Part shown: positions 22,639 to 46,987 of the stretch, piece by piece | Layout: every line of letters starts with the position of its first letter | Position numbering within the stretch: position 1 is the stretch's first letter | Translations under genes and position numbers: made by a program | DNA from: an uncultured Pseudomonadales bacterium | GTDB lineage: Bacteria > Patescibacteriota > Microgenomatia > UBA1400 > UBA1449 | DNA: 64,000 nucleotides | NCBI GenBank assembly: GCA_964386355.1 | Contig: CAYLQQ010000003.1 | Location: forward strand, 69,880 to 133,879 | Direction: 5' to 3' | Notes under the pieces: generated by a model | The model's database searches: none | What the model was told of the DNA's origin: nothing | The model's input: the letters and a program-made list of their open reading frames with translations, nothing else

Positions 22639-23154
22639 TTATTTCTTTAAATCAACAGCATTTACAATGCAGACTTTACCAATATTTCTTTTCATTAGTT
22701 CAATCGCGTCTTGATGGAATTTGAGCCCATGGTGTGAAGCGCATAGGTCTTCAATAACTTTCACATTATGATCTTTTTCAAATGCTGCAAATGCGCTGGC
22801 AAGAACACATGCGTCAGTGTCAATTCCGCACAGGTAGAGCTCAACATCTTTCTTATTTGCAAGATACCTAACAAATTCATCTGATCCGAATATTGAAAAT
22901 GTATGTTTATTAAACGTGTGATGCTTGTTGGCATACGGAACTAACTCAGAAGCCAGTTCGACTTCTTTGCCATGCATCATATGGTTCCAAGCGAAAAGTT
23001 TAACAAAGTTAGAATTGGGATGATTTACGTACTGGAAGAAAACAACATCATTAAATACATGGGCTTCTATGCACTCTGCAATAGCCTTGGGAAGATGTAT
23101 TGTATGATCGTTTAGAAAATAGGTTTGGACATCAACAACAACCAAGATCTTCAT
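22639..23154 (-). CDS. Isochorismatase-family cysteine hydrolase
   Basis: MKILVVVDVQTYF and LCGIDTDACV (catalytic Cys) motifs. Confidence 0.65.
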   Translation of the reverse strand: MKILVVVDVQTYFLNDHTIHLPKAIAECIEAHVFNDVVFFQYVNHPNSNFVKLFAWNHMMHGKEVELASELVPYANKHHTFNKHTFSIFGSDEFVRYLANKKDVELYLCGIDTDACVLASAFAAFEKDHNVKVIEDLCASHHGLKFHQDAIELMKRNIGKVCIVNAVDLKK

Positions 23155-28810: not shown

Positions 28811-28864
28811 CTCGCCTTCATTGAAAAGAAAGAATCGGCATTTGAGCCGACTTTTTCTTTTCAG

Positions 28865-28953
28865 CGGAAGGGGCGAGATTCGAACTCGCGATATACCTTG
28901 CGGCATATGCCGATTTTCGAAATCGGTGCACTCGACCTCTATGCGACCCTTCC
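28865..28953 (-). tRNA. tRNA-Ser (anticodon CGA), class II
   Basis: Reverse complement GGAAGGGTCGCATAGAGGTCGAGTGCACCGATTTCGAAAATCGG...GCGAGTTCGAATCTCGCCCCTTCCG. Anticodon loop TTCGAAA. Confidence 0.85.
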
Positions 28954-31149: not shown

Positions 31150-31237
31150 GGAGGAGTCGCCTAGTGGTTCATGGCGCACGCCTGGAAAGCGTGTATGCTT
31201 CGTGCATTCGCGAGTTCGAATCTCGCCTCCTCCGCCA
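31150..31237 (+). tRNA. tRNA-Ser (anticodon GGA), class II, with CCA encoded
   Basis: GGAGGAG-TC-GCC-TAGTGGTTCAT-GGC-GCACGC-CTGGAAA-GCGTG-(long variable arm)-GCGAG-TTCGAAT-CTCGC-CTCCTCC-G-CCA. Confidence 0.85.
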
Positions 31238-32716
31238 TTCTAAAATATCAGTATTTTTTGGTAAGTCTTTGAGGTAGTCGTAAGGCTTTTTGTATTGTAC
31301 CTTCTGTATTTTCCCATCAGCTATCTCACAGTTCCAAAGTAAGAAATCAAGCAGTTCTTTCTTAACCTGTTTGTTTCCCTTTTTAAACTCAGAATGCAGG
31401 CTAATACAACGTTTTTTAATCTTTTCCAAAAGTTCCAAAGTTTTAGTGGGGTTGGGTGGTGTGTACTTGCTCAGAGCAATCTCGAGGTTGGTTTTCTCCT
31501 CCATTAAGGCTTTCCGTTTCTCCTGGTAGGTCTGTTCATCGAGGCTGTTCTCTAGAAGTAGGTCGAGTAGCCGGTTCAGCTTCTTCTGAATACCGGAGAG
31601 CTCCTGCTGCATCAGCTTGGCTCCATTGAGCTTGTCCTGTTCCCGAACCATTCTATCCTCCATATAGAGCTTGAGTGATAGCGAGGCTAAGTCACCTGGT
31701 AAGGAGGACTGCTTCATCAGACTTTGCAGCAAATCCTGTACCCCCGGCTCATCAAGGTAATCCCGATGCTGGGAACACACCCCTTTTCCGTTAGTGCAGT
31801 AGTAATACACATAGCGCCCTTTTTTAAGGCTAGCGGTTAGCTTGCATCCACACACAGCACATGATAGATACCCACGGTAGAGGAAGTTGTGAGTTTGTTT
31901 CTTGCTTCGGTTAGTCCCATTTAAAACAGTTTGAACTCTATCCCAAAGAGTTTTACTGACTGCTGGTTTGTGTTTACCTTTGTAAAGGATATCGTTTCTT
32001 AGAATTGCTCCATAATAGAATGGGTTTCTCAGACACTTGTGTAAAACCGACTTATGGACTTTTTTATTGCCTAATCTGGTACGTAATCCATCTTTGTACA
32101 GGATAGAAGCAACCTGTTTAAGAGAGTATTCACCTGTTGAGAATAATCTAAACAGCTTTTGAATGTACGTAAATCGCAGAGGATCAGGCACGATCTCTTT
32201 AGTTTCTTTATCGTTTAGGTAACCGATGTATGCCATACCCGGATAGCCGCCTTTTAGAAGTTTGGTTTCATTCCCATGCTTAACCTTGACTGAAAGTTCC
32301 CGGGAATAGTTTGAGGCAAACAGGAAATCAAATCCCATATAGAGTAAATCTTGAACTGATGAATAGATACGGTTAGGAGTTCTGATCTCTTTAAGTTTCC
32401 CTTGTTCGATGAGCTTGGCTATCTTTCCGGCCTCAATCCAGTTTCGACTTAACCTATCCAGGTGAACAGCCAGAATAGCATTGACCTCGCCTGATTCAAT
32501 ACGCTTAAGCATAGATGAGAATTGTGGGCGGTTGTTGTCATCTTTGGCACTGCGAGCTTCCTTAAGGACATCAATCACATTGAGGCCATCTCTGTCAGCT
32601 TGCTCAAGGTTAAGACGTTGCTGGGTTTCCAGTGATTGGATTTGCTTGGTATTTTCATCAGAGGACTTACGACAATAAGCTATATAGCGAAGAGAAGAAT
32701 TATTCATCATGAGCAT
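31169..32716 (-). CDS. Large serine recombinase (resolvase catalytic domain + recombinase domain + zinc ribbon + coiled-coil); its C-terminal codons overlap tRNA-Ser(GGA)
   Basis: RYIAYCRKSSDENTKQIQSLETQ (catalytic Ser), LDRLSRN, and CAVCGCKL...CTNGKGVC zinc ribbon. The start is probably at the MLMM Met cluster (32707-32716); the listed ORF begins at 32776. Confidence 0.75.
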   Translation of the reverse strand: MLMMNNSSLRYIAYCRKSSDENTKQIQSLETQQRLNLEQADRDGLNVIDVLKEARSAKDDNNRPQFSSMLKRIESGEVNAILAVHLDRLSRNWIEAGKIAKLIEQGKLKEIRTPNRIYSSVQDLLYMGFDFLFASNYSRELSVKVKHGNETKLLKGGYPGMAYIGYLNDKETKEIVPDPLRFTYIQKLFRLFSTGEYSLKQVASILYKDGLRTRLGNKKVHKSVLHKCLRNPFYYGAILRNDILYKGKHKPAVSKTLWDRVQTVLNGTNRSKKQTHNFLYRGYLSCAVCGCKLTASLKKGRYVYYYCTNGKGVCSQHRDYLDEPGVQDLLQSLMKQSSLPGDLASLSLKLYMEDRMVREQDKLNGAKLMQQELSGIQKKLNRLLDLLLENSLDEQTYQEKRKALMEEKTNLEIALSKYTPPNPTKTLELLEKIKKRCISLHSEFKKGNKQVKKELLDFLLWNCEIADGKIQKVQYKKPYDYLKDLPKNTDILEWRRRRDSNSRMHEAYTLSRRAP

Positions 32717-33641
32717 CACTCTTTCCGGCAGGCGGATTGTGGTAGCCATTATACTCAAAAAAATATACTTGACCATTCCTCTTACTTACAAACTTGCTAT
32801 TAAACGTAGATTCAATACCATGAGCACCCAACTCATCAAGAATATACTCAGCCTCATCAGAATAATATATTTTAGGTCTATCCAGATTACGGGAAGTAGC
32901 ATAACTACGATGTCCAACAAGTCTTTTGTCTAGAGCATTTTTAATCATGTACTTAGCCAAGTATTGTCCAACATGATCCAAGGTATACACTCGTTCAATT
33001 TTAATAAATCCGAATCCCCAGTATTGCGCAATGGTTTCTTTATCGAGAAAGGGAAAGTCTACCACAAGGTGATAGTGAACTGCTCCTCGTTTTTGAAACT
33101 CAACTACCCAGACATACTTAAACTTCCCATACTGTTTACGCATAGCTTTTAGGAAAGCTCCCATCTTGTCATGACAGACCTCAACATTGGTAATATCAAA
33201 ACTGTTGTGATCATTTAGAGTAAGCGTGAGAAACTTGGTGTGTGGATTGTCTCCAAAATTACCCTGCACAAGGCGTATTAGGTTGTTTGTAGCTCTGACT
33301 GCTGTACGTTTTCGGTACTCTTTACTCCTCTTTGTTTTTCGCTTAAATGGATCTTCAAAGGGTTTTCGCTTCTTAATCTCTTTAATTCGTATCGTTAAGG
33401 GAAACTCATATCGATAGTATTGGATTAAATTATTAATCTTAATTATTTTAATATTTGTCTGTTTGTAGGTGGGAGAGGTATCAAATTTTTCCTGTGCTTT
33501 ATATATGAGTTTTAGTGCTTCATTCCGTTTTGTGACGTTACTATCAAGTAGAGAAGGTGGGAACTGCCTGGGAGCAGTGGTATCCCGACTACCGTCGGGA
33601 TACAAGTGGCGCTCTAATAGTTTTTCTTTAGCCTTATTCAT
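32700..33641 (-). CDS. Rolling-circle replication initiator (HUH endonuclease Rep)
   Basis: Motif I FLTLTL, motif II AVHYHLVV (HUH), and motif III YLAKYMIKN (Y..K). Confidence 0.7.
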   Translation of the reverse strand: MNKAKEKLLERHLYPDGSRDTTAPRQFPPSLLDSNVTKRNEALKLIYKAQEKFDTSPTYKQTNIKIIKINNLIQYYRYEFPLTIRIKEIKKRKPFEDPFKRKTKRSKEYRKRTAVRATNNLIRLVQGNFGDNPHTKFLTLTLNDHNSFDITNVEVCHDKMGAFLKAMRKQYGKFKYVWVVEFQKRGAVHYHLVVDFPFLDKETIAQYWGFGFIKIERVYTLDHVGQYLAKYMIKNALDKRLVGHRSYATSRNLDRPKIYYSDEAEYILDELGAHGIESTFNSKFVSKRNGQVYFFEYNGYHNPPAGKSDAHDE

Positions 33642-33887
33642 ACACCTCCGTTTCCGGTGTATGGTTTAGGTACAAGGCTTTGCCTAAGTGAATGAGGGAT
33701 AACCTAATCTCAAGAAGATCATCGGAAGGTATAGTGATACCGAACGTATTTTGGAAGTATTCCTGTATTTGCTGGTACTGGGTTTCTTCAAGGGACTTGA
33801 CTTGCTTCATATAGCCAGACTAGGCTACGAAGCACAATTACATCAGGGATAAAGCGGGGGATATTTTACGGGGTATATTGTGGGAGA

Positions 33888-34628
33888 TTATGAAATATCA
33901 ATCAATTTATACCCCTCGGAACGGATGGCTACTATACTGTCCATGACCTTAGTTACATCATCTTTTCCAACGCCTGATTCCTTTAACCTTCTGCCAAACC
34001 TCTTTTTAATATCACGAATCAGATCTTGTGCTTGGCTTACATCTAAACCCTTTGTGGATACATTTAAGTTAAGGTAGCTAACAAAATCAATGTAGTTGAT
34101 TACTTTGCCTTTATGTTGAAACAAGTGCATAAAAAATCTAAATTCTCGATTATTAACGTTGATAGTTTTTGATTGGTTGCCTGTATACTGAAATGTAGCT
34201 CTGGTTAAATTGATGGTGATTGGGCCGTGAACATACAATAAATCATCCACACCTCTTATATTAGGTTTTACCAAATGTAATGTGTTATCTTTTTGAGCAG
34301 TTAACTCAGCTAGATCTCTGTCAATTTCCCTAAACGTATGTTCTAGATCATAGGGAAGCGGATAGATATGAGGAATAGTAGAAGCCAAATACTGTAAGTC
34401 CTCTTCAAACGTCTGCTTTGTGGAGTTCCAGTCTTTGATGTGTTCATCAGCTTTGTTAAATAACGAGGGGAAGCTTTTTAATCCCATGATTGGTAATTGA
34501 CGAAACTCAGGACGAATATCAATCACGGTAAATGGCTGTATTATCTGCTGGTATAGATCATCTAATAAATGAGAGGGAAAAATATACTGGTGAGATTGTT
34601 CTGAATATTCACTGTACACACAATCCAA
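33888..34628 (-). CDS. Hypothetical protein with a C-terminal OmpR/PhoB-like winged-helix DNA-binding domain
   Basis: C-terminus ...IRDIKKRFGRR...VMDSIVAIRSEGYKLI resembles trans_reg_C. Confidence 0.35.
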   Translation of the reverse strand: MDCVYSEYSEQSHQYIFPSHLLDDLYQQIIQPFTVIDIRPEFRQLPIMGLKSFPSLFNKADEHIKDWNSTKQTFEEDLQYLASTIPHIYPLPYDLEHTFREIDRDLAELTAQKDNTLHLVKPNIRGVDDLLYVHGPITINLTRATFQYTGNQSKTINVNNREFRFFMHLFQHKGKVINYIDFVSYLNLNVSTKGLDVSQAQDLIRDIKKRFGRRLKESGVGKDDVTKVMDSIVAIRSEGYKLIDIS

Positions 34629-34894
34629 AATCTCGAAAGCCTTTTGATAGAGGACATAATGGTAATACCTGACAGCTTTAAGGTAAAAGGTTTTAGTAGC
34701 TGGGGTTTTGCAATGACGGGGGTATACTCAAGCGGTAATTCATCCCATTCTGAGCTGTTCTTATCAAAGAGACTTAGAAATGTTTCAATAGCTGGAGCAA
34801 AGAAGTTGAGAACCTTATCTTGAAATAATGTTTTAATGTCATCAGTTAGCTTATTCATAAAAAATGTTCGTAATATTGACCAGTAGTATATCAC
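34562..34894 (-). CDS. Hypothetical protein
   Basis: ORF of 110 aa within the element. Confidence 0.25.
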   Translation of the reverse strand: MIYYWSILRTFFMNKLTDDIKTLFQDKVLNFFAPAIETFLSLFDKNSSEWDELPLEYTPVIAKPQLLKPFTLKLSGITIMSSIKRLSRFWIVCTVNIQNNLTSIFFPLIY

Positions 34895-34900
34895 CTCATA

Positions 34901-34928
34901 AAAAGCCTCCGGTTTAGGAGGCTTTTAT
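34901..34928. terminator. Bidirectional rho-independent terminator
   Basis: AAAA-GCCTCC-ggttta-GGAGGC-TTTTAT. Confidence 0.5.
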
Positions 34929-34947
34929 ATTAATCTTTTAAAAAATA

Positions 34948-35616
34948 TTATATTTCTGAACCAATATCTTTATACTCATTAACCGGAGTTGGGACCGGAC
35001 TACTATCTGGTTTTTCTGCAGTACTAGCTCTATGTTCATTAAAGGCTTTATCAATAACAACGCAAGCATCTTTATACGGTAAAGAGGCATAAGAATATTC
35101 AGGTTTAAATCCAATACCTTGACCATAATTACCCACTCTTACTTCGTAAGTAATTCCACCGGGCAAAGAAATATCTACCTGAGGTTCTCTTCCTATACTA
35201 TTACTATTTGGACGGTAGTACTCTGCATCAGCCTGTTGTTTTGCTGCCTGAGCCTTTAATTGAAAGTTGTCTTCACCCCCAACTAACGCATATATTTGTT
35301 CTTTTGTCAAAGAATTCACTCCAAAAGTATATTTCATTTTATTAGGATCGCGCGGGATATGAGCTCTATTATCTCTCTTTTCAAAATCCTCCCACTTACT
35401 CTCATCATCAAAAACTGCGCCTACAGCACAAGGTTGCAGACTTAAAGCATAGTCAGCACCACTTCCTGATTGAATGGCATTTTCTAATGCAGAACCAGAC
35501 CAATTTGTTAATAGTTCCTTCCACATTGCAGTCATATTATTAATGAGCCGATCTGCAGTCTCTTTTTTTGTTTCCTCAATAGTCCCTAACTGTTCTGTCG
35601 TTGTAGTTTCAGTCAT
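34948..35616 (-). CDS. Hypothetical protein (element cargo; possible structural protein)
   Basis: ORF of 222 aa; no motif recognised. Confidence 0.35.
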   Translation of the reverse strand: MTETTTTEQLGTIEETKKETADRLINNMTAMWKELLTNWSGSALENAIQSGSGADYALSLQPCAVGAVFDDESKWEDFEKRDNRAHIPRDPNKMKYTFGVNSLTKEQIYALVGGEDNFQLKAQAAKQQADAEYYRPNSNSIGREPQVDISLPGGITYEVRVGNYGQGIGFKPEYSYASLPYKDACVVIDKAFNEHRASTAEKPDSSPVPTPVNEYKDIGSEI

Positions 35617-35881
35617 ATTTCTCCTTAATATTATTAATATTTATTGAGGTAATATTAACATCGCTAGATCTTTTAAATCAAGGTCTAGAAAATAATTTAA
35701 AATTACTTTTTTCCTCTATAAAAGTTCCAACATCGTCCCATCTCCTCCGCCAGGCGAGACAGAATAGTCTTTATGATTACTCTAGTAATCAATTTAAACA
35801 CTCTGTCTTTGTCAGGGGATTTGTTACAATCATTGGGTACAAAGTTAGAATGTATTGAATTAATAGTAAATAACTAGAGTT

Positions 35882-36352
35882 CTAACAATCACCCCTACCT
35901 ATAAGCACTAATGCTTGATCGATTTCCTGTGCTGCAATCCAAGGTTTGAAATTCTTCGGAATATGAAGAAAGGTGTATCGGGATTTAAGTTGTTTTTGGT
36001 TAATAAGCTTCATAATTTCCCAACTGGTTTGATTACAATAAGAATTACCAATTGCTGTGGCATACTTCATACCAAGAGTTGGTTGCAAAAATGGCTGTAT
36101 TTCTGTGGTTATTAAGTGGTCACTTTCTATCAAATTATTCCTAAACTGATTAGTGCATATTGTTTCAATGCGAATTTTTTCCTGATCAACACCAGAATAT
36201 GAACCTAACCCTACAATATATTCCGGCTGGTCATGCAATAGCATATTTAGATAATGATCAAGGTTATTAGGGAAAACCAGATAACAGCAACTCAGTTGCT
36301 TAAGTCTATATAAAATATGGCCAGTACCACCTAAAGCAAATCCATAAATCAT
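35882..36352 (-). CDS. Pyroglutamyl-peptidase I-like (peptidase C15), compact form
   Basis: DQPEYIVGLGSYSG, IGNSYCNQT (Cys nucleophile region) and TFLHIPKN (His) align with the Pcp active-site blocks. Confidence 0.45.
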   Translation of the reverse strand: MIYGFALGGTGHILYRLKQLSCCYLVFPNNLDHYLNMLLHDQPEYIVGLGSYSGVDQEKIRIETICTNQFRNNLIESDHLITTEIQPFLQPTLGMKYATAIGNSYCNQTSWEIMKLINQKQLKSRYTFLHIPKNFKPWIAAQEIDQALVLIGRGDC

Positions 36353-36357
36353 AAAGT

Positions 36358-38586
36358 TTAAAACAAACTGAGTTGGTCTTCATTGATAACTTTCTTTTTG
36401 ATTGGGCTATTGAGCTTTGATAAACCCAAACTGCGATAGGTTCGTAAGCGTTTATAGTACATGATTTTTAACATTGGCACCTGGTCATCAAAATAATCAT
36501 GAACCACTGCTTGAGTTTTTCCTTCATATGGCCGCTGGACCCGGCCAATATTCTGGATCAATTTCCCCTTCCAGGAAAACGGAAAGGCTAAGAATAGGTG
36601 CGAGACTTCGGGCCAATCAAAACCTTCTCCAATTAGTTTACCGGTAGCAATTAGCAGTTGAAAACGGTCCTGATGTAATCTTTTAGCAATCCGTTCCCGT
36701 TGCTTTTTCGTCATAATACCTGTTGCAACCGCGGCATGAACACCTTTGATCTTTTGGCGAGTCATTTCAAGTAAGGTTTTACAGTGTTCCAGACGTTCGG
36801 ATAGTACCAAACACTTAGCTCCAGTAGCCAAAACAGCGGCAATATCAGTGACAATTTGCTCGTTTCGCTCTTTATCGGCAATTACTAACCGGCTTGCCTC
36901 CTGAAAATCCTCACATTTCGTATTCCCTTTGAATTGTGTTTTACGAGTAACCAATTGAGTTTCGATAGTAGGATTGATCTGAGTAGTTTTCTGTCCAGCT
37001 TCAGGTTCGGCAGTAACGATCTGATCTGATAGGTAGTAATACATTAACTTGTCTAGTTTATCTTTTCGATAGGCGGTAGCCGATAAACCCAATACATATT
37101 TAGCTGGAAATTGCTTAACTACCTGACTAAAGGTATTTGCTGGAACATGGTGGCATTCATCAATAATGACTAGTCCAAAGTCATTCTTAATTTCCTCTAT
37201 TCCTCTTCTGAAAAGAGTCATATAGGAAGCAATAGTGATCTTTTTCCCAACTTTCCATTTATTATCACCAATCAAACCAATGTCGTCCTTTGAAAGCTTG
37301 AAGTAATCACTAATTCGTTTATGCCACTGTTGAAGTAAAGTGTTGGTATGAACAATGATTAATGTCCTTTGCCGTAATTTTTTCATTAAAGCCAAAGCGA
37401 CCATAGTTTTGCCAAATCCAGGATTAGCATTTAAGATTACCCGGTTATACCCAATCAATTGTTTCAGGACTTTTTGCTGATCTTTCCTTAAAATAAGTTT
37501 TGAAGGAAAACTCGTGGTTTTTGTGGTGACCCTCTGATCATCAAAGGTAACTTTTAAATGTTCTTGCTGTGCAAAAGCAATTGTTTTCTCTAAAAAGCCT
37601 ATTGGTGCCAAAATCCCTTCAGGTTGAATTTCGAGAGTCTTAATAAATCGGGGAGTTTGCCAGGTTGAATAACCCAGACGTTCTTTTTCATAGAACTCAG
37701 GATTAGGAAAGTTGAGTTCCTGCTTCAGATATCGGTAGAGTTTATCCGGAAACCAAACGTTCGGAATAAATATACCAGAACTTAAGATTAATTTAGTTTC
37801 CTGCCCTTGAGTGGTAATAACTTTCTCACCGGCTTCAATTGATCCAACATCATCAAGGATGTTTTCGGCTTTCTCTGATTGAGTTTGAGAGGTCATTGTA
37901 ATTGGCTGGATTACAGGTATCTTCAAAATACTATCAATCCTACTGATAGCTATCTTTTTAACGCTGCCCAATATTTTCCACTGATCAGGAAATACCTTAC
38001 CCTCTTCATCAATGAAAGCGGTATACCCCTGTTTTAGGAACTGACCACAAAGAGGCAGGCAAATCAAGTTACCATAACCTTTGCCGGTATGCTCATCAGC
38101 GCTGGGAAACATCCGGTCAAAGGTATGCCGGTTAGTAATCCCGGCTTGGGATAAGAAATATTTACCCAATTGTCTGGCTTTATACCCCTCAACCAATTTC
38201 TCAAAGAAGAACCATAAGTGAGAACCGTTGCCGGATTTTGACCGTTCAATTAAATACGGTAAGTCATAGGTTCGAGCAATATCAGTTACTTTCCTAGTAG
38301 CTTCAAGCCAATTTTGACCATCAAAGTCAAAAGCTAAAAAGGCAGTCGTATTATCCGGAAACAATGGGTAAACACCAATAACCTCTTTGCCTGTCAGATG
38401 AGATTCAATAACCTGATCTGTTAATGCTTGAGGTTGGTGGTTTATAGAGTATACCGGTGTATAACCCGACTTTTTGCCAGAGTAATCTACCCAAAACCTG
38501 GCAAAAACATCCGTTCTAGTCCTAAAAAGTGACCGGGCTAGGTTAATTTGCTCTAAAGTAATAGGATTTCCCATAGAATTACCCAA
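36358..38586 (-). CDS. Fusion of a bifunctional primase-polymerase (AEP/Prim-Pol) N-terminal domain and a C-terminal SF2 helicase (DEAD/ResIII + HelicC)
   Basis: AEP motifs hLtGkeviGvY, AFDFDG and SGNGSHLWFFF. Helicase Walker A NPGFGKT and DExH box VIIDECHH. Confidence 0.65.
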   Translation of the reverse strand: MGNSMGNPITLEQINLARSLFRTRTDVFARFWVDYSGKKSGYTPVYSINHQPQALTDQVIESHLTGKEVIGVYPLFPDNTTAFLAFDFDGQNWLEATRKVTDIARTYDLPYLIERSKSGNGSHLWFFFEKLVEGYKARQLGKYFLSQAGITNRHTFDRMFPSADEHTGKGYGNLICLPLCGQFLKQGYTAFIDEEGKVFPDQWKILGSVKKIAISRIDSILKIPVIQPITMTSQTQSEKAENILDDVGSIEAGEKVITTQGQETKLILSSGIFIPNVWFPDKLYRYLKQELNFPNPEFYEKERLGYSTWQTPRFIKTLEIQPEGILAPIGFLEKTIAFAQQEHLKVTFDDQRVTTKTTSFPSKLILRKDQQKVLKQLIGYNRVILNANPGFGKTMVALALMKKLRQRTLIIVHTNTLLQQWHKRISDYFKLSKDDIGLIGDNKWKVGKKITIASYMTLFRRGIEEIKNDFGLVIIDECHHVPANTFSQVVKQFPAKYVLGLSATAYRKDKLDKLMYYYLSDQIVTAEPEAGQKTTQINPTIETQLVTRKTQFKGNTKCEDFQEASRLVIADKERNEQIVTDIAAVLATGAKCLVLSERLEHCKTLLEMTRQKIKGVHAAVATGIMTKKQRERIAKRLHQDRFQLLIATGKLIGEGFDWPEVSHLFLAFPFSWKGKLIQNIGRVQRPYEGKTQAVVHDYFDDQVPMLKIMYYKRLRTYRSLGLSKLNSPIKKKVINEDQLSLF

Positions 38587-38607
38587 TATTATACCCTATC
38601 ATATAGA

Positions 38608-38665
38608 AGTTTCCTTGACAGAAGGAAACTTATAGTGCATACTTTCCTTTGTACAAGGAAACTTT
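38608..38665. promoter_or_regulatory. Two adjacent operator-like sites in the divergent promoter between the PrimPol-helicase and the AAA ATPase: a perfect inverted repeat, then a TTGTACAA-centred imperfect palindrome; both carry AAGGAAACTT
   Basis: AGTTTCCTT-gacag-AAGGAAACT (38608-38630) and TTTCCTTTGTACAAGGAAACTT (38643-38664). Confidence 0.45.
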
Positions 38666-38696
38666 GTTAATAAATTTCCTAGTACTTAGCTTACCT

Positions 38697-39986
38697 ATGG
38701 CCGATAAAGACATCCTTAAAACCATTATTACAGATAACCAGCAGCGCGTACTCCCCGAAGTTTGGAAGCGGAGTCTAGAGATACCGCTTGAAAGTAGCAA
38801 GATCATTACCTTAAGCGGAGTTAGACGGAGTGGGAAAACGTATCACCTTTTCAACCTCATGAGCCAATTGAAAAATCAGGGAGTAGAAGCTAAACGTATT
38901 CTGTATATTAATTTTGAAGATGAGCGGCTACGCTTATCTGTTGATGAATTGGATTTAATCATTCAAGCTTACCAGGAATTATACCCGGATTTAAAACTAT
39001 CTGAGTGTTATTTTTTCTTTGATGAAATCCAGGAAATTGAAGGTTGGGAAAAATTTATCGCCAGAATCTATGCTTCAATCAGTCAGCATGTTTTTATTAC
39101 CGGTTCAAATGCTAAATTATTATCCAGAGAAATTGCCACCGCTTTACGTGGCCGGACCCTAACGTTTGAAATTTATCCTTTATCATTTACAGAATTTGTT
39201 AAGGTAATATCTCCTGGGTTAAGCCCTTATAGCAGCGCTGACAAAGCCAAGTTAGCGAGCCTGTTTGACCAGTTTCTATGCCAGGGAGGTTTTCCCGAAA
39301 TAATAAAACAGGAAGATAGCTTAAAAGAAAAAGTCTTACAGGAATACTTTAATGTCATGGTCTTTAGGGACTTAATTGAACGCTACCAAATTTCTCAAGC
39401 GACAATTTTGAAATATTTCTGTAAACGGGTAGTGGGGGCTAGTGGCGGAGAATTTAGTGTCAATAAAATCTTTAATGAGCTAAAATCTCAGGGATATCAG
39501 GTGGGAAAAGACACTTTGTATGACTATCAAGGGTACGTGGATGCCATTTATTTAAACCGGTTTATTCCCAGGTACTCACATTCGGTCGTTAAAGCTGAAA
39601 GCTCCCAAAAGAAAACGTATGTGATTGATCAGGGGCTTGGAGTGGCTCTAGATTATAAATTTGCCCAGGATAGAGGAAGACTACTGGAGACTACGGTTGC
39701 TTTAGAGATATTAAAACAAGGTAAGCAGATTGCCTATCAGCAAAATGGCAGTGAATGTGATTTTGTCACAATAGAAAAAGGTGCTGTTACCTCAGCTATA
39801 CAAGTGGCTGCTCAGCTAAGTGATTCTAAAACCAGAGAAAGGGAAATAAAAGGGTTAGTCCAAACCTGTCAGAAATTTAATTTGCCAGAAGGTAGTATAA
39901 TTACTTTTGACCAGATAGAACAACTGGAACAAGATGGTATTCATGTTCAGATAATGCCTGCTTGGCAATGTTTTCTGAAAGTTTAG
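38697..39986 (+). CDS. AAA+ ATPase of the DUF4143/AAA_14 family
   Basis: Walker A GVRRSGKTY and Walker B-like YFFFDEIQ, with the C-terminal DUF4143 region. The start is moved to the ATG at 38697 (MADKDIL), downstream of the palindromes. Confidence 0.6.
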   Translation: MADKDILKTIITDNQQRVLPEVWKRSLEIPLESSKIITLSGVRRSGKTYHLFNLMSQLKNQGVEAKRILYINFEDERLRLSVDELDLIIQAYQELYPDLKLSECYFFFDEIQEIEGWEKFIARIYASISQHVFITGSNAKLLSREIATALRGRTLTFEIYPLSFTEFVKVISPGLSPYSSADKAKLASLFDQFLCQGGFPEIIKQEDSLKEKVLQEYFNVMVFRDLIERYQISQATILKYFCKRVVGASGGEFSVNKIFNELKSQGYQVGKDTLYDYQGYVDAIYLNRFIPRYSHSVVKAESSQKKTYVIDQGLGVALDYKFAQDRGRLLETTVALEILKQGKQIAYQQNGSECDFVTIEKGAVTSAIQVAAQLSDSKTREREIKGLVQTCQKFNLPEGSIITFDQIEQLEQDGIHVQIMPAWQCFLKV

Positions 39987-40096
39987 GAATTAGAATTTAG
40001 TGGTGAATAAATAGCTTCTAAGGATATGGAATTCTCCAAAACCCAAGTTCTAACTTTGTAACAAGTGTACCACCATCTTTCGCTTCTTACACTTCT

Positions 40097-41512
40097 TTGT
40101 TACTATCCCACAGTATGAAGTTCCAATTGCCAGACAAACTCACCTTTGTCGATATCGAAACTACCGGTTGCCATCCCCAAAAAGACAGAATTATTGAGAT
40201 TGGCATATTGCGCGTGGAAGATAATACGCTCGTCCAAAGTTACCAAACGCTTCTCAACCCCCAAACCCATATCTCACCCTTTATCGAGGACCTGACGGGA
40301 ATAAAAGCTACTGATCTGGAACAAGCACCTCTTTTTGAAGATATTCACCACGAACTATTTGACATATTAGATGAATCGGTATTTGTTGCCCATAATGTCA
40401 GGTTTGATTATGGGTTTATACGTAATGAATTTTTACGGTTAGGTAAAAAGTTCAGTGCTGATCATTTTTGTACAGCCAGGCTCTCCAAATCATTGTACCC
40501 ACAATATTCCAGGCATAACCTGGATGAGTTGATGCATAGGTTTGGTTTTGTATGTGAGAGTAGGCATCGGGCATTTGATGATGCTAAGGTATTGTGGGAT
40601 TTTTATCAGCTGGTACAAAAGCAGATCGACAAGGAGCATCTCATCAAGGCAGTGATGATTGGTTTAAAAAAACCAACCATCCCAATCAATTTAAACGAAT
40701 CAGTTCTCAAAGATATTCCTGATTGCCCGGGCGTTTACATTTTTTATGGCCAAAACGGTATGCCGATATACGTTGGGAAAAGTAAGCACTTACATGACCG
40801 GGTTTGCTCCCACTTTAGCGCCGATTACCTCTCGAGTAAAGACATGAAACTGAGCCAGCAGGTGTTTTCTATTGAGATACGCGAAACTGCGGGAGAGTTA
40901 GGGGCGTTACTTCTCGAGTCAAAGCTGGTCAAGCAACTGATGCCTATTTACAACCGCATGCTGCGCAAAGCACGTACACTCATTTTACTGAAACGCACAC
41001 AAAATGAGGATGGGTACTATACGATCTCAATCGGAGAAGCATTGGAAGTAAAACCCGATGAGATACCGGATATCATGGGAGTTTTCAGATCCAAACTTCA
41101 GGCGATCGACTTTCTTGTCAACATTACCAAAGAACACCGATTGTGCCAAAAGCTGTTGGGTTTGGAAAAGAGTGCCAAAAGCTGTTTTGGCTACCAGCTT
41201 AAGACTTGTAAGGGCGCATGTCTGGGTAAAGAAAAACCAGCTAGTTACAATGTTCGGTTAATGGACGCGCTGTCCAAAACTAAACTGCATAGCTGGCCAT
41301 TTGGGGGACCAATTGAGATTATTGAGGAGAACGAAGAATTGAATAGAAAAGATGTTTTTTTGATTGATAATTGGTGTATTGTCAAAACTACAGTCTTCAA
41401 TGGTGAAGTAAAAACAGATGCGTTCCAAAAGAAGCTTGATGTAGATGTGTACAGAATTTTAAAACGGCATGTATACCGCACCCAATCATATATACATTCT
41501 CATTCTGCATAA
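40097..41512 (+). CDS. DnaQ-like DEDDh 3'-5' exonuclease fused to a UvrC/Cho-like GIY-YIG nuclease domain (Cho-like excinuclease)
   Basis: Exo I FVDIETTG, Exo III HRAFDDAKV, and GIY-YIG GVYIFYGQNGMPIYVGKSKHLHDRVCSHF. Confidence 0.6.
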   Translation: MLLSHSMKFQLPDKLTFVDIETTGCHPQKDRIIEIGILRVEDNTLVQSYQTLLNPQTHISPFIEDLTGIKATDLEQAPLFEDIHHELFDILDESVFVAHNVRFDYGFIRNEFLRLGKKFSADHFCTARLSKSLYPQYSRHNLDELMHRFGFVCESRHRAFDDAKVLWDFYQLVQKQIDKEHLIKAVMIGLKKPTIPINLNESVLKDIPDCPGVYIFYGQNGMPIYVGKSKHLHDRVCSHFSADYLSSKDMKLSQQVFSIEIRETAGELGALLLESKLVKQLMPIYNRMLRKARTLILLKRTQNEDGYYTISIGEALEVKPDEIPDIMGVFRSKLQAIDFLVNITKEHRLCQKLLGLEKSAKSCFGYQLKTCKGACLGKEKPASYNVRLMDALSKTKLHSWPFGGPIEIIEENEELNRKDVFLIDNWCIVKTTVFNGEVKTDAFQKKLDVDVYRILKRHVYRTQSYIHSHSA

Positions 41513-41559: not shown

Positions 41560-43395
41560 ATGCCCAATTCCGCACAACTGGTTCCGCTGTGGGTCCGTTT
41601 TGCTACAGGAGAGAAACTTACTGGACTCAATGCTCTATCTCTTTTGTATCTACGCACTCAGGATACCGACTACGGTGGTGGGGATTTTGGCAGCCTGTAT
41701 AAACTAATAGATATTACTAGAGAAAATGGCTTATCTAGTATTCAACTTCTACCGCTTTTTGATACCGCGGAATATTCCAGCCCATATATGCCAGTCAGTT
41801 TTTTTGCGCTCAATCCAATTTATCTTTGGGTTGATGACCCCCTATTTGAAGGTTTGGGGGAAAAGCTAAGACAGGAACAAATACAGTGGGTTGACCAGCA
41901 GATTCCCCAATATGTTTTGTACGGGAAATTACGCCAGTTTAAGCTTGATGTGCTCAATCTTGCCTATGGGAAGCTGAAAACCATTCCTGAGTTTGAAACG
42001 TATAAAAAAGAGTGCAGGAGAGATACTCGTACCTGGGCTGAATTTTGCGCTTTTAAAGAGACTCATACGGGTGATTGGCAAAAGTGGCCAAAAACAACCG
42101 GTACAAACTCCAAACGGGTCGACTTTTACCTTTTTGTACAGTGGATTTTAGGAAGACAGTTGCAGTATATAAAACAGTATGCTGAACAAAGAGGTGTATA
42201 TATATGTTTGGACCGCCCGCTATATCCCCAAGTACAAAGCAGTGATGCATGGTCCAGGCAGGAACTGTTTTATTTAAAACCAGATGGATATCCGCAGTAT
42301 GTTTCGGGCTGCAGTAATCCCCAGGATCCGTTTGGTGACCAGGTTTGGGGACATGCAGTATATGATTTTAATACCCACGAACCTAAGATCAGAAGTTGGT
42401 TTGAAGATAGCATTGAGTATATGGTGCAGTTTTGTGATGCGGTGCGCCTCGATCATGTATTAGCTTTGATATGGAAATACTACCTAATAGATCCTCAAAC
42501 AAGTAGGGGTGAGCATAGAGTAGCTCAGGGACGGCGCTTGCTCGAGGACCTTGTGTGCAAATTTCCTCACACGTTCTTTATAGCTGAAGAAACAGGCTAT
42601 GAAAGTGAGGAAGCCGTTGATAAGCCCTTGAGAGAAATTGGGATGTCCGGTGTGCGCTGTATTCAATGGACAACAGAGAGAAACTACGATGTTTTATCAT
42701 ATCCACGTGCAAGTGTTGCGTATACTTCAACTCACGATTCCCAGCCACTTGTCACATGGTTCTCACAAAAAAGACAAACAGATAAAAGTTTGTGGTTACA
42801 AAAAATACGTGCACCATCTTCAATATCTGCTTTTCAGTTGCGCACGTCATTGATACATTCGGTTTTAACGTCCCCGGCACAGTTGTGTATGATCAATATT
42901 ATGGATATTCTGGGTGATACGCGGCGGCTGAATACGCCGGCCACTTCGGATGCTGACAACTGGAAGCTGCGTATGTTGCGTCCACTTGAGAAGGTAAAGT
43001 ATGGAAGTATCACAAATCATTCTAGTTCTGTGAACACGAGCGGAGCAGACCCCCAATCAGCTTATATGACACCCTCATATCCGAGGGTACTACACCTTGA
43101 TAATAATAGTAATTTCTCATTTTACATTGCTTCAAAAAATAAATTTGAGTATATCCAAATACATACAAACTTGCCAGAAATAAGCAAAGATAAAAAGTGG
43201 AGCGTGACCACTATACATGCATCTGAAATTAAACCAATCAAGATGGGGGATTATTATATTTGGAACATATCTATTTCAAAGACCTCCCTTACTGTACCAG
43301 GAACGTATGAGCTAGCTGTTAGCATCAAGTACGAAAATGGCGAATACACGTATCTTCAGAGCATGGGAAAGAATCTGAAAATCAATATATTGTAA
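41560..43395 (+). CDS. malQ: 4-alpha-glucanotransferase (amylomaltase, GH77) with a C-terminal extension
   Basis: LLPLFDTAEYSSPY, WGHAVYDF and ETGYESEEAVD resemble GH77 blocks. Confidence 0.75.
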   Translation: MPNSAQLVPLWVRFATGEKLTGLNALSLLYLRTQDTDYGGGDFGSLYKLIDITRENGLSSIQLLPLFDTAEYSSPYMPVSFFALNPIYLWVDDPLFEGLGEKLRQEQIQWVDQQIPQYVLYGKLRQFKLDVLNLAYGKLKTIPEFETYKKECRRDTRTWAEFCAFKETHTGDWQKWPKTTGTNSKRVDFYLFVQWILGRQLQYIKQYAEQRGVYICLDRPLYPQVQSSDAWSRQELFYLKPDGYPQYVSGCSNPQDPFGDQVWGHAVYDFNTHEPKIRSWFEDSIEYMVQFCDAVRLDHVLALIWKYYLIDPQTSRGEHRVAQGRRLLEDLVCKFPHTFFIAEETGYESEEAVDKPLREIGMSGVRCIQWTTERNYDVLSYPRASVAYTSTHDSQPLVTWFSQKRQTDKSLWLQKIRAPSSISAFQLRTSLIHSVLTSPAQLCMINIMDILGDTRRLNTPATSDADNWKLRMLRPLEKVKYGSITNHSSSVNTSGADPQSAYMTPSYPRVLHLDNNSNFSFYIASKNKFEYIQIHTNLPEISKDKKWSVTTIHASEIKPIKMGDYYIWNISISKTSLTVPGTYELAVSIKYENGEYTYLQSMGKNLKINIL

Positions 43396-45217: not shown

Positions 45218-46987
45218 ATGGCAGGTAAGGACGAGGTAAAGCAAAAGATCGATATAGTTGATTACATAGGCTCGCAAATTCAGCTCAAACGGGCTGGTCG
45301 CAATTTTAAGGGCCTCTGTCCCTTTCACCTCGAGAAAACACCCTCATTCCATGTTTCTTCAGATAGGCAGATATTCAAGTGCTTTGGTTGCGGCAAATCG
45401 GGTGACATTTTCACCTTTTACCAGGAACGAGAGGGTGTGACCTTTTTTGAGGCGCTTAAAGATTTGGCTAAGATTGCCGGTGTAGAGCTTGACAGCTTCG
45501 AACCTAGCGATGAGTATAACCAGAAGCAGCGGTTATTAGAGTTACATGCAGCAGTAGCCAAGCTATTTAACTACCTTTTAATCCAACACCAAATAGGTAA
45601 AAAAGCCTTCCTCTACATCCAGGAGCGGGGTGTTACATCCAGTCAGATCAAAGAATTTAACCTTGGCTACGCTCCTGATAGTTGGCGAACGGTAACCGAT
45701 TATTTGACCAGAAGAAAAGGCTATAAGCCCGAAGAGGTTGAGGCGGCTGGATTGGCTATTCGCAGTTCAAACGGCTGGTACGACCGGTTTAGGGGGCGGA
45801 TCATGTTTCCGCTTACCGATCACAGGGGCAACCTGGTCGGGTTTTCAGGCAGGATACTACCTGATTTGGATGATGGTAAATCAGGCAAGTACATAAACAC
45901 ACCAGAAACAAGCATTTATCACAAAAGCCAGCTTTTATTCCCTTTATACAACCTCAAAGACAGGATTCGGGATGAAAAAAGCGTTGTCGTTGTTGAGGGG
46001 GAGTTTGATGTATTATCCAGTATTCGTGCAAGTGTAAGCAACGTCGTAGCTGTAAAAGGCTCAGCTTTGACAAAAGAACAGATTAGCCTCATCAAACGCT
46101 ACTGCGATACTGTTATTTTATCGCTGGATGCCGATAGCGCTGGCGTAGCAGCCGCTAAGCGCGCTATAAGTACACTTCAGATTCAGGAGCTGACTATCAA
46201 AGTGGTTGAAATACCAAACGGTAAAGATCCGGACGAGCTTGCCAGATCTGATCCCAAAGCTTGGCGGGAGGCTGTGAAACATGCGGTCAATATTTATGAT
46301 TTTTTCCTGGATGTAGCTCTGCGTCAGAATGACCCCAAAACCGTTGAAGGCCAAAAAAAGATGAGTGCCGAGTTATTACCCATTTTTTCAAAAATAGAGA
46401 ATAAAATTGAACAAGATCATTATCTCAAAAAACTGGCAGATACATTAGGCATGGCTAAAACTGTAATAGAAGGGGAAATGGAGCGGTTGGTCAAAAAAAG
46501 CCAGATCAATAGGCAATACATTAGCAGTGATACTAATCAGATTGAGAAAAAACCAAGTAGCCGTTTGGAGGCTTTGCTAGATGAGCAATTGACGCTTGTT
46601 ATACATTACTGGGAGACGGTCAGGATATGGTTTGTACCCGGCAGTCTTTTTGCCCAACAACTTGCAGATTTCCCGAAATCAGCCGTAACCTCGATTATGG
46701 AGCTACTCGTGGATAGGCAGCCTGAAAGTATGATTAGCTTTGCAAAAACCTTACCAATGCAACTTCAACCTAAATTTGATGACTGTTTCTTACAAGAACC
46801 AGAACAGATGTCGGTAGAAAAATTACGTAAATCTATAGAAAATATGCAGGCTGATATTGCAAAAATAGAACTTCGTGATAAACTAAACAAGTTGCGCCGC
46901 GATCTTACCTCGACAACTACCGAGCAGCGAGCAACAGTTGAGCAGCAAATCAATGACGTTTTGCTGCGTTTTCGTGTTTACAACTGA
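45218..46987 (+). CDS. dnaG: DNA primase
   Basis: CHC2 zinc finger CPFHLEKTPSFHV...CFGCGKSGD and TOPRIM (VVVEGEFDVLS...LDADSAG). Confidence 0.85.
   Translation: MAGKDEVKQKIDIVDYIGSQIQLKRAGRNFKGLCPFHLEKTPSFHVSSDRQIFKCFGCGKSGDIFTFYQEREGVTFFEALKDLAKIAGVELDSFEPSDEYNQKQRLLELHAAVAKLFNYLLIQHQIGKKAFLYIQERGVTSSQIKEFNLGYAPDSWRTVTDYLTRRKGYKPEEVEAAGLAIRSSNGWYDRFRGRIMFPLTDHRGNLVGFSGRILPDLDDGKSGKYINTPETSIYHKSQLLFPLYNLKDRIRDEKSVVVVEGEFDVLSSIRASVSNVVAVKGSALTKEQISLIKRYCDTVILSLDADSAGVAAAKRAISTLQIQELTIKVVEIPNGKDPDELARSDPKAWREAVKHAVNIYDFFLDVALRQNDPKTVEGQKKMSAELLPIFSKIENKIEQDHYLKKLADTLGMAKTVIEGEMERLVKKSQINRQYISSDTNQIEKKPSSRLEALLDEQLTLVIHYWETVRIWFVPGSLFAQQLADFPKSAVTSIMELLVDRQPESMISFAKTLPMQLQPKFDDCFLQEPEQMSVEKLRKSIENMQADIAKIELRDKLNKLRRDLTSTTTEQRATVEQQINDVLLRFRVYN

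Follow-up and report, generated by a model that had tools for sequence, protein, structure and literature searches.

IEE, the IS-excision enhancer of Escherichia coli O157:H7 (ECs1305 / Z1568; Kusumoto 2011; Calvo 2023, PMC9943667), brings about transposase-dependent IS excision and adjacent deletions. Its ATPase domain does not unwind DNA, and its biochemistry calls for an end-processing nuclease (PMC9943667). Eukaryotic Pol theta, in which a polymerase is fused to a helicase-like ATPase and which promotes microhomology-mediated end joining, has been named as a functional analogue of IEE (PMC11724360). Marinitoga CAPP, a CRISPR-associated Prim-Pol, and T4 UvsW are HHpred relatives of IEE (bioRxiv 10.1101/2023.06.07.543989). 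A further relevant group is TOTE, the TPR, OB, TBP, Effector conflict systems (Aravind, Iyer & Burroughs 2022, as cited in PMC12458937).

The window analysed here is a stretch of 64,000 nt from the chromosome of a CPR bacterium (Patescibacteria, Microgenomates-like), a group that does not figure among the phyla published as having IEE homologues. Four open reading frames are located at 35882-36352 (minus strand), 36358-38586 (minus), 38649-39986 (plus) and 40097-41512 (plus), and the region is flanked by MalQ (41560-43395) and DnaG (45218-46987). A first-pass annotation, made from the letters of the DNA alone, had given these frames, with MalQ and DnaG as flanking core genes, and its coordinates and all of its domain calls are correct. 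It also joined a PrimPol-helicase, a DUF4143 ATPase and a DnaQ-GIY-YIG nuclease into one module. We consider instead, with a probability of about 0.75, that the region is a juxtaposition of three independent things.

The IEE-like gene occupies 36358-38574 (minus) in the public gene call, with an ATG start at 38574 and a product of 738 aa; the open reading frame reaches a TTG at 38586 (742 aa). BLASTP aligns the protein end to end with E. coli IEE (WP_000233452.1) at 31% identity over 750 columns (E 2e-114). In Pfam the 742-aa frame displays an archaeo-eukaryotic primase-polymerase (AEP) domain at aa 12-219 (PF22548, AEP-TOTE, E 6e-62; 37930-38553, minus) and an SF2 ATPase core at aa 364-700 (36487-37497, minus), with matches to ResIII/DEAD (aa 364-506) and Helicase_C (aa 586-685). 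E. coli IEE has the same two-domain layout over its full length, matching PF22548 at 1.7e-98 as well as ResIII and Helicase_C, and PGAP gives both proteins the same 'TOTE ... AEP' name. Their PDB relatives are also the same. In profile searches with the window protein, the AEP domain matches CAPP (7nqd/7nqf, 1.7e-30, aa 7-224), and the ATPase matches archaeal XPB (1.6e-37), T4 UvsW (1.4e-27) and RadD (8.6e-23).

In the alignment, the AEP catalytic residues D87, D89, H123 and D157 correspond to D142, D144, H178 and D216 of IEE, Y73 to Y128, the Walker A K393 to K451 and the arginine finger R682 to R735. All IEE residues named as catalytic are kept in the window protein, with roles taken from PMC9943667, and the motifs DFD (D87/D89), SGxGxH (H123), GFGKT (K393) and DECH (476-479) are invariant among relatives. 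Profile search bears out the primase-polymerase and SF2 helicase domains that had been read from these motifs, with PF22548 as the AEP family. The suggestion of an uncharacterised DNA-targeting defence or repair cluster pointed in the right direction, but 'uncharacterised' is wrong: on sequence grounds the protein is a member of the IEE (Z1568-like) family, which has been studied by experiment (PMC9943667).

The window protein is shorter than IEE (738 against 786 aa) and is without the Cys4 insert of the IEE AEP domain (about aa 84-106) and the ~45-aa N-terminal extension, so that the activities of the CPR form may differ. Its gene also has a recurrent divergent DUF4143 neighbour. CAPP (PDB 7NQD/7NQF; NCBIfam PrimPol_Msp) provides the closest solved AEP domain, and the PADLOC model for CRISPR-associated PrimPol matches at 6.7e-50. 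However, the NCBIfam score is 98.7 against a cut-off of 200, CAPP is fused to a TPR region rather than to an SF2 ATPase, and neither cas genes nor a repeat array are found in 31-46 kb (Pfam, repeat search). TOTE has given its name to the Pfam family of the AEP domain, but Pfam scans of most ORFs of at least 100 aa in 27-48 kb reveal no TPR-OB/CSD or TBP gene, and such genes are also missing from the common neighbour clusters of ~160 homologous loci. The likeness to Pol theta is an analogy only, since Pol theta is of family A rather than AEP and has the reverse domain order. The pRN1 ORF904 and D5-like/P4-type primase-helicases likewise have an N-terminal AEP followed by a P-loop motor; these are SF3/SF4 replicative enzymes in replicons, whereas the window protein is of SF2 XPB/UvsW type and is cargo.

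We infer the biochemical activity and in vivo substrate of the window protein from E. coli IEE. By this comparison the AEP domain would act as an error-prone DNA polymerase, dependent on Mn2+ and tolerant of dislocated primers and templates, and the SF2 domain as a DNA-dependent ATPase that holds and synapses DNA without unwinding it. Jointly they would anneal single-stranded 3′ ends at microhomologies of a few bases and then extend them, a process of microhomology-mediated end joining like that of a small Pol theta. In vivo, DNA may be resealed or deleted in this way after a transposase or recombinase cut. The window was searched by tblastn with ten transposases and recombinases taken from other loci (IS1, IS3, IS30, IS66, mutator, Tn3 and serine and tyrosine recombinases). 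Only the serine recombinase was detected, and none of the known types of IEE substrate was found near the gene.

Homologous loci number at least 537 (~33% identity) and are scattered sporadically across many phyla. Full-length copies are present in 98 plasmid records and in none of 50,697 phage records. In two enterobacterial plasmids the gene lies between Tn3 resolvase and transposase genes, and in a Pantoea plasmid (the one plasmid whose neighbours were read for this) it is cargo next to the plasmid's own RepA. Frequent neighbours are Fic proteins, integrases, and AbiE-type and other toxin-antitoxin-like proteins, the likeness being judged by eye rather than by profile; HigB, BrnT and PIN toxin-antitoxin genes are annotated beside some family members. 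In CPR the context differs in every genome. The IEE-like gene is accessory, horizontally mobile and mobile-element-associated, as the first-pass annotation had supposed, and it shares with E. coli IEE the life style of an accessory gene spread horizontally on integrative elements, plasmids and transposons.

The neighbouring gene, at 38697-39986 (plus), codes for an AAA+ (AAA_14) ATPase with a C-terminal DUF4143, and is the only DUF4143 gene in the window. The open reading frame is 445 aa (38649-39986; AAA_14 5e-36, DUF4143 1.4e-12), and the likely start, judged from relatives, is the ATG at 38697 (429 aa). DUF4143 ATPases had been proposed as island genes, and this one corresponds to the PADLOC candidate PDC-S01 (E 3.8e-105). 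DUF4143 has been placed in the PD-(D/E)XK superfamily (PMC3424549); motif comparison shows that the E-x-K nuclease motif is lost in the CPR DUF4143 partners of IEE and reads Q-V-A here.

Between the divergent genes (38609-38662), a repeat search reveals the palindromes GTTTCCTTgacagAAGGAAAC (38609-38629) and TTTCCTTtgtacAAGGAAA (38643-38661). A promoter-like site of the DUF4143 gene (TTGACA-17-CATACT, 38615-38643) shares its -35 and start region with these palindromes, which probably represent an operator. The intergenic palindrome is kept in L091, a relative about 90% identical, and in L084, while loci L001, L089, L090 and L163 display another palindrome, GTTTTCAyTGTCAATGAAAAC, beside another DUF4143 subfamily. 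The divergent arrangement, with 81-113 bp between the genes, recurs in five of nine distinct CPR contexts, in agreement with the pairing noted at first pass. Thus IEE and DUF4143 are probably co-regulated island neighbours. Outside CPR a DUF4143 gene lies within 200 bp of IEE in four loci and within 5 kb in four more, and adjacency is seen in Gammaproteobacteria, Syntrophales, Ruminococcus and an Acinetobacter plasmid. The partners come from at least two unrelated DUF4143 subfamilies (27-33% identity), and this repeated pairing, which exceeds plain co-residence, hints at a functional link.

A 4.5-kb integrated element adjoins these genes. Its right att copy, the 11-bp ctcctccgcca, is at 35742-35752 (plus), as first described, and the left copy at 31227-31237 is the 3′ end of tRNA-Ser(gga). 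In L091 the DUF4143, IEE and Pcp-like genes stand beside tRNA-Ser without the element. L091 is collinear with window positions 35742-40075 at 89.7% identity and then runs straight into tRNA-Ser, the tRNA 3′ end being joined directly to the sequence of window position 35753 onward. This is an empty site. Because L091 has the genes without the element, the genes of the IEE block are not part of it; the right att copy is a boundary marker only, outside the block, and the serine-recombinase element inserted at tRNA-Ser later than the IEE gene was placed there.

The link between the two divergent genes could also mean a co-regulated defence or anti-mobile-element pair, in which sensing of foreign DNA, or loading on it, would fall to the ATPase, with the PrimPol-ATPase as a replaceable effector, or the IEE-like protein alone could be a TOTE-related single-gene immune effector. 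An immune role is kept as a candidate because of the Pfam/PGAP name, which refers to predicted 'conflict systems', and the many toxin-antitoxin and defence-type neighbours, but we regard it as unlikely. The shared palindrome-bearing region, the adjacency outside CPR, the PDC-S01 match, the frequent toxin-antitoxin, AbiE and Fic genes, and an AEP clade named for TOTE and close to CRISPR-associated Prim-Pols are consistent with defence. So is the slot between DUF4143 and the Pcp-like gene, which holds IEE, PRiA4_ORF3 (in L163, otherwise syntenic with L090) or a 321-aa unknown. However, the flank read contains no DUF4143 gene in about four of the nine CPR contexts and roughly 140 of ~150 non-CPR loci, and orientation is variable outside CPR. 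The IEE and DUF4143 phylogenies are incongruent and either gene is exchanged independently; therefore neighbouring cassettes fit better than an obligate pair. The loss of the E-x-K motif and the absence of the TOTE hallmark genes (TPR-OB, TBP) also argue against defence, and literature searches gave no paper in which IEE defends against phage.

The first-pass annotation took the block for the possible replication apparatus of a larger or second tandem element at tRNA-Ser, with a primase-helicase assisted by an ATPase and a nuclease; a plasmid-derived island would be another form of this reading. AEP-helicase fusions are generally known as typical replicases of small plasmids and phages (PMC11724360), the block immediately adjoins a tRNA gene serving as att site, synteny with L091 stops on its far side, and a weak inverted repeat (35831-35850 / 40048-40067) brackets it. 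But the bracketing 12-mer is not significant and is absent from other loci, no further att-like repeat was found to the right, and the tRNA 3′ end has just one other near match, on the opposite side (28729-28746). Integrase, Rep and partition genes are all absent from the block, and the other CPR copies occur in unrelated contexts without element hallmarks. Together with the type of ATPase (SF2, not SF3/SF4; that of IEE does not unwind DNA, PMC9943667), the lack of full-length copies in the phage records and the separate RepA in Pantoea, this largely refutes replication, which is now very improbable. Least probable of all is a single chromosomal DNA-repair cluster of IEE, DUF4143 and DnaQ-Cho, core to the lineage. 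All three genes are DNA-acting, DnaQ-Cho follows DUF4143 on one strand at a distance of 110 nt, and an end-processing nuclease is called for by IEE biochemistry (PMC9943667). Yet a DnaQ-GIY-YIG gene is adjacent to the AEP-helicase in 0 of 166 other loci, and CPR genomes carry IEE far less often than DnaQ-Cho. L091 synteny ends at ~40075, 22 nt before the DnaQ-Cho start and thus between DUF4143 and DnaQ-Cho, where the terminator hairpin of another gene is found. A DnaQ-Cho homologue elsewhere lies among GreA, SecG and UvrC genes without IEE. The three-gene module fails on the same evidence.

Under the preferred reading of independent things in juxtaposition, DnaQ-Cho and the Pcp-like gene are probably ordinary chromosomal genes that flank the IEE/DUF4143 pair by chance. 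DnaQ-Cho (471 aa, 40097-41512, plus) looks like a housekeeping gene, a mere neighbour unlinked to the IEE block. It combines a DnaQ-type DEDDh 3′-5′ exonuclease (RNase_T/DEDDh 8e-35) with a Cho/UvrC-N-type GIY-YIG nuclease, the fusion originally annotated, and a 100%-identical database entry bears Pfam UvrC_M and Cho_C. This is the architecture of Cho and the Mycobacterium-type DnaQ-UvrC-like nucleases (PRK07883, PRK10545). The NCBIfam matches (PRK07883 3.9e-72, Cho 5.5e-57) are below the curated equivalog cut-offs (243 vs 495; 193 vs 367), and the protein therefore represents a CPR lineage of these nucleases that has diverged.

The remaining gene (35882-36352, minus), 5 nt downstream of the IEE-like gene, codes for a 156-aa protein without a Pfam match. 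In PDB profile searches only pyroglutamyl-peptidase (Pcp) chains are returned (best 3.5e-4). Its AF2 model (pLDDT 95.6) gives Foldseek PDB matches at E <= 0.001 that are pyrrolidone-carboxyl peptidases in 34 of 34 cases (TMq 0.64-0.78), and the Glu63/Cys106/His130 triad is invariant, so that Glu-Cys-His is intact. The Pcp-like guess made at first pass was a good one: the protein is a miniature of the peptidase C15 fold. This mini-Pcp is an independent gene family, and in L167 and L168 its gene stands alone.

The four open reading frames that the first-pass annotation had placed in this part of the window are present at their coordinates. The largest, on the minus strand at 36358-38586, encodes 742 aa, and its proposed archaeo-eukaryotic primase (AEP) domain is borne out by a Pfam match to PF22548 (“AEP-TOTE”) at aa 12-219 (E 6e-62). 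An SF2 motor follows, with ResIII/DEAD at aa 364-506 and Helicase_C at aa 586-685 (Pfam). The public gene call for this gene is a 738-aa product from ATG 38574, and a minus-strand TATAAT is found 13 nt upstream of this ATG. A profile made from the window protein and 13 relatives was used in a search of PDB. The AEP domain matches the Marinitoga CRISPR-associated Prim-Pol (7nqd/7nqf, 1.7e-30), and the motor domain matches archaeal XPB (1.6e-37), T4 UvsW (1.4e-27) and RadD. Among these structural relatives are those reported from HHpred for the IS-excision enhancer (IEE) of E. coli O157:H7, i.e., 7NQE and 2OCA (Marinitoga CAPP and T4 UvsW; bioRxiv 10.1101/2023.06.07.543989).

Alignment of the window protein with O157:H7 IEE (WP_000233452.1, with the RefSeq name [quoted passage not shown]) shows 31% identity between window residues 10-721 and IEE residues 47-774 (BLASTP, E 2e-114). 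IEE matches PF22548 at 1.7e-98 and has a Pfam architecture identical to that of the window protein; in both, an SF2 (DEAH) ATPase is C-terminal to the AEP domain in one polypeptide, and the two are collinear over their full length. The IEE metal ligands D142/D144/D216, the nucleotide-binding H178, the Y128 that stands where an rNTP-selecting His would be, the Walker A K451 and the arginine finger R735 (PMC9943667) align with window D87/D89/D157, H123, Y73, K393 and R682, respectively. All of these are invariant among 14 relatives of the Patescibacteria (CPR) clade, with the exception of R682, which is conserved in at least 90%. However, an N-terminal extension of ~45 aa in IEE is missing from the window protein, and a Cys4 (zinc-ribbon-like) insert in the IEE AEP domain falls on a gap in the window protein, and the consensus of the CPR clade does not have it either. 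Among other homologues, the insert is present in one gammaproteobacterial (Lamprobacter) and one Bacillus protein and absent from the one Bacteroidota protein read (L009). The insert marks a subfamily difference and is not stated to define the IEE family. Judged from its sequence, the main gene of the region is a new, Cys4-less CPR member of the known IEE family.

IEE is a protein of 786 aa in which a Z1568-like AEP domain is fused to an SF2 helicase-like domain. In a transposase-dependent manner, it increases how often IS629 and other elements of the IS3, IS1 and IS30 families are excised, and it also causes adjacent deletions (PMC9943667). In vitro the AEP domain polymerizes DNA in an error-prone reaction that depends on Mn2+ and tolerates strand dislocation, and the C-terminal domain has DNA-dependent ATPase activity but no unwinding activity. 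Joining of 3′ overhangs with homology of 4 nt or more requires both domains (PMC9943667). IEE has been likened to Pol theta (PMC11724360). With this literature as support, the window gene is a candidate for IEE-type microhomology end joining and mobile-element excision. No transposase genes of the families queried are found in the 64-kb window, i.e., there is no IS substrate of those types. Public records name such genes only “DEAD/DEAH helicase” or “type III restriction res subunit”. The IEE-type gene is common in candidate-phyla-radiation genomes and now gains a concrete, testable function, and the host range of the IEE family now includes a major uncultured lineage with tiny genomes, in which mobile-DNA control and end joining are poorly understood.

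Full-length relatives, at ~33% identity, are found in at least 537 loci in contigs that represent one genome per species, and these belong to Bacteroidota, Pseudomonadota, Bacillota, Acidobacteriota, Planctomycetota and other phyla. A metagenome scan for close relatives returned mostly homologues of ~33% identity and added little to the CPR clade. Plasmid records with a full-length relative number 98; none of 50,697 phage records has one, and phage matches are confined to the motor. On the plasmids Pantoea pDSJ06 (L164 5259-9166) and E. albertii pESA134_1 (L165 5259-11196), the gene order is Tn3 resolvase, IEE relative, Tn3 transposase, and pDSJ06 carries its own RepA. An Acinetobacter plasmid has a HigB gene and a transcriptional-regulator gene, followed by the IEE relative. 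When 658 neighbour proteins from ~160 loci were clustered, no universal partner gene was found, the largest cluster covering at most 15 loci. An inspection of representative sequences by eye gives as the commonest neighbours Fic proteins, tyrosine integrases, DUF4143 ATPases, AbiE-type toxin-antitoxin genes and serine recombinases. In other CPR genomes, where the IEE proteins are 63-74% identical, the surroundings of the gene are unrelated. Such a distribution is what a stand-alone accessory gene shows when it resides in mobile or variable DNA. The best matches of the four window proteins are from Patescibacteria (Gottesman-, Roizman-, Shapiro- and Levybacteria).

Several smaller features of the homologues were also seen. 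The pDSJ06 and pESA134_1 homologues are Tn3 transposon passengers of 796 aa, and the Tn3 transposase gene of pDSJ06 is truncated. Bacteroidota homologues (L009, L006, L013, L015) are ~990 aa long, with a ~265-aa C-terminal extension (L009 12179-12976) that has no Pfam match. A ~240-aa protein, also without a Pfam match, recurs beside CPR IEE genes that have no mini-Pcp neighbour (L001 10262-10984, L086 6261-6995, L004 8073-8801), and its position and strand vary. On a Patescibacteria contig (L005 37-1536), an IEE homologue that is 37% identical is divergent from an IS66-family transposase gene, and a mini-Pcp gene follows the homologue.

In the window the IEE-like gene lies between a pyroglutamyl-peptidase-like gene (mini-Pcp, 156 aa, 35882-36352, minus strand) and a gene for a DUF4143 ATPase (445 aa, 38649-39986, plus strand); next to the latter is a DnaQ-Cho gene (471 aa, 40097-41512, plus strand). 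Locus L091, with an AEP-helicase that is 90% identical, is collinear with window 35742-40075 at 89.7% DNA identity. The homology ends at ~40075, so that the last 22 nt ahead of DnaQ-Cho are not covered; at this point L091 displays the 3′ end of another gene and a terminator hairpin. On the other side, the 3′ end of the L091 tRNA-Ser(gga) gene joins directly onto the sequence of window 35753 onward (L091 4534-4623). L091 continues straight into tRNA-Ser(gga), and therefore 31238-35752 is an insertion. This 4.5-kb element is bounded by an 11-bp repeat, and its genes are a serine recombinase (31169-32776), a rolling-circle Rep (32700-33641) and three unknown open reading frames. A 90% relative has the site in clean, empty form, which confirms that the element inserted recently and with an att repeat of 11 bp; the DUF4143-IEE-Pcp block is older than this insertion. 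Separately, an isolated 18-mer, ATCTCGCCCCCTCCGCCA, at 28729-28746 on the minus strand has one mismatch to the tRNA-Ser(gga) end. This 18-mer, ~118 nt downstream of the tRNA-Ser(cga) gene (28864-28953), may be what remains of an att site that a different element used.

The first-pass annotation had read the AEP-helicase, the DUF4143 ATPase and the DnaQ-GIY-YIG protein as one module for replication, or for defence or repair. The part of this reading that holds is an accessory AEP-helicase in mobile regions; the three-gene module and the replicon do not. The genes are not a unit, because the L091 synteny stops before DnaQ-Cho and the 166 other loci with an IEE homologue gave no match to DnaQ-Cho. 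It is very improbable that the block from mini-Pcp to DUF4143 (35753-40075) is the replicon of a second element in tandem at tRNA-Ser. The motor is of the XPB/UvsW-like SF2 type and not a replicative SF3/SF4 helicase, the block has no integrase, and the full-length gene is absent from phages and carried by plasmids as cargo, for example inside Tn3 or beside RepA. A further att-like repeat was looked for to the right of the block and not found; apart from the known repeat, the tRNA 3′ end is closely matched only by the 18-mer at 28729-28746, on the opposite side. An imperfect 20-nt inverted repeat with the core ACAAAGTTAGAA does bracket the block (35831-35850 and 40048-40067); the L091 synteny break is 8 nt beyond the end of its right arm, and the core is also present at 23003. 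Transposon-like ends were rejected as an explanation: the 12-mer core is not statistically significant, its count being reached in 4 of 100 shuffles, and it is absent from other loci.

Two systems with related proteins were also considered. In TOTE conflict systems, as defined in PMC12458937, TPR-OB (S1/CSD) and TBP-like proteins are encoded with the effector. Pfam searches of most open reading frames of at least 100 aa in 27-48 kb revealed no TPR, CSD/S1 or TBP domains, and a TOTE conflict system was rejected on the absence of TPR-OB and TBP genes from that region. A CRISPR-associated Prim-Pol (CAPP) was likewise rejected: the NCBIfam model PrimPol_Msp scores 98.7 bits against the window protein, below its cut-off of 200, no cas domains are detected in the neighbours (Pfam), and no repeat array is present in 31-46 kb. 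A role in defence, either of DUF4143 and the IEE-like protein as a two-gene system or of the IEE-like protein alone as an immune effector, is unlikely. It is favored by the island-type neighbours and by the status of the DUF4143 protein as a PADLOC candidate (PDC-S01, 3.8e-105 with the 445-aa open reading frame). Searches of the literature turned up no account of IEE protecting against phages. To annotate AEP-helicase, ATPase and nuclease together as a replicon, or as a defence system of three genes, would be an error, which is avoided here in favor of an IEE family member.

The DUF4143 protein has AAA_14 (PF13173, 5e-36) followed by DUF4143 (PF13635, 1.4e-12), an order of the COG1373 type, and the start codon of relatives corresponds to ATG 38697. 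It is the single DUF4143 gene of the 64-kb window. In five of nine distinct CPR contexts (window/L091, L084, L001, L089, L090), a DUF4143 gene is divergent from the IEE gene and 81-113 bp from its start. Outside CPR, four loci have a DUF4143 gene within 200 bp of IEE, and another four have one within 5 kb. The recurrence of the pairing is real and still calls for an explanation. The DUF4143 proteins are of two types, A (window, L091, L084) and B (L001, L089, L090, L163), with 27-33% identity between types; the associated IEE proteins are 63-74% identical, and their similarities do not track the type of partner. By sequence comparison, the DUF4143 partners of CPR IEE genes are not orthologous. 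Each type has its own palindrome at the DUF4143 start codon, GTTTCCTT-n5-AAGGAAAC in type A and GTTTTCAyTGTCAATGAAAAC in type B. The window copies (38609-38629 and 38643-38661) overlap a promoter-like site directed toward the DUF4143 gene, at its −35 and its start region. The palindromes form a predicted operator, which possibly serves both divergent genes. As a general feature of DUF4143 genes, palindromes gave mixed results.

DUF4143 has been classed in the PD-(D/E)xK superfamily (PMC3424549). In the C-terminal region of the window protein (39700-39830), E331 and D355 are kept, and Q-V-A is found at the E-x-K position. All CPR partners of IEE have Q-V-A/T/V at this position; non-CPR DUF4143 proteins have E-V-K or E-M-K, with the exception of one from Geobacter, which is of the Q-V-A/T/V type. 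A nuclease role of CPR DUF4143 is doubtful because Q-V-A/T/V replaces E-x-K, and the pattern suggests that the CPR partners and the Geobacter protein constitute a nuclease-dead subfamily.

Locus L163 is syntenic with L090 at 77-78% DNA identity over the DUF4143 gene and the intergenic region, and again over the mini-Pcp gene. The IEE gene of L090 (7964-10213) is replaced exactly in L163 (5338-6022) by a 208-aa PRiA4_ORF3 gene (PF07929, 2.7e-59). In L162, the slot between DUF4143 and mini-Pcp has a 321-aa gene with no Pfam match. The simplest reading is a variable slot beside the DUF4143 gene that holds independent cassettes, but a functional DUF4143-effector pairing is possible. With a probability of roughly 0.15, the CPR DUF4143 ATPase and its divergently transcribed neighbour would make up a system of two components, the second of which can be exchanged. 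The ATPase, its nuclease domain degenerate and its gene under a palindromic operator, would be joined by an IEE-type PrimPol-ATPase, a PRiA4_ORF3 protein or the 321-aa protein, and would recruit the IEE-type enzyme to foreign or transposing DNA. If true, the large DUF4143/COG1373 family would have a functional partner for the first time, and IEE a role beyond IS excision in E. coli. The recurrent pairing can be tested at little cost, and the family that it concerns is a large one.

Of the four genes, DnaQ-Cho and mini-Pcp are bystanders. Pfam detects a DEDDh exonuclease and GIY-YIG in the 471-aa DnaQ-Cho protein, and UvrC_M and Cho_C in an identical database entry and in a 53% relative. The GIY-YIG, UvrC_M and Cho_C domains are those of Cho and DnaQ-UvrC-like excinucleases, to which the N-terminal DEDDh exonuclease is added; NCBIfam Cho and PRK07883 match below their equivalog cut-offs. 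The family is very large in CPR, with >6,000 matches at E ≤ 1e-20. Beyond the two closest, the best 120 matches are spread evenly near 50% identity, and one homologue sits among greA, secG and uvrC-like genes.

The 156-aa mini-Pcp has no Pfam match. A profile of ~70 homologues matches only pyrrolidone-carboxyl peptidases in PDB, and all 34 Foldseek PDB matches at E ≤ 0.001 of its AlphaFold model (pLDDT 95.6) are Pcp structures. Glu63/Cys106/His130 are invariant and aligned with the Pcp catalytic segments. Fold and Glu-Cys-His triad are thus shared with pyroglutamyl peptidase I (peptidase C15); however, the protein is ~55 aa shorter and lacks a Pfam match, and is therefore a divergent mini-form. 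The gene is also found standing alone. That mini-Pcp is the detached C-terminal domain of the ~990-aa Bacteroidota homologues was rejected, as jackhmmer gave no such match. The family is restricted to CPR, with ~70 clusters of ~160-aa proteins (P0121-P0192), and the L091 copy is split in two. Pieces of 65-110 bp (L089 10739-10838, L090 10744-10810, L163 1901-2000 and 8415-8522) adjoin the mini-Pcp gene downstream in two genomes, and two are found in L163. They are 76-90% identical to the 3′ end of L163 gene 7621-8514, which encodes ...WYEFGRIDW...EYPEWT... and has a weak, below-cut-off match to a recombinase zinc ribbon. The pieces may be footprints of integrative elements at this site.
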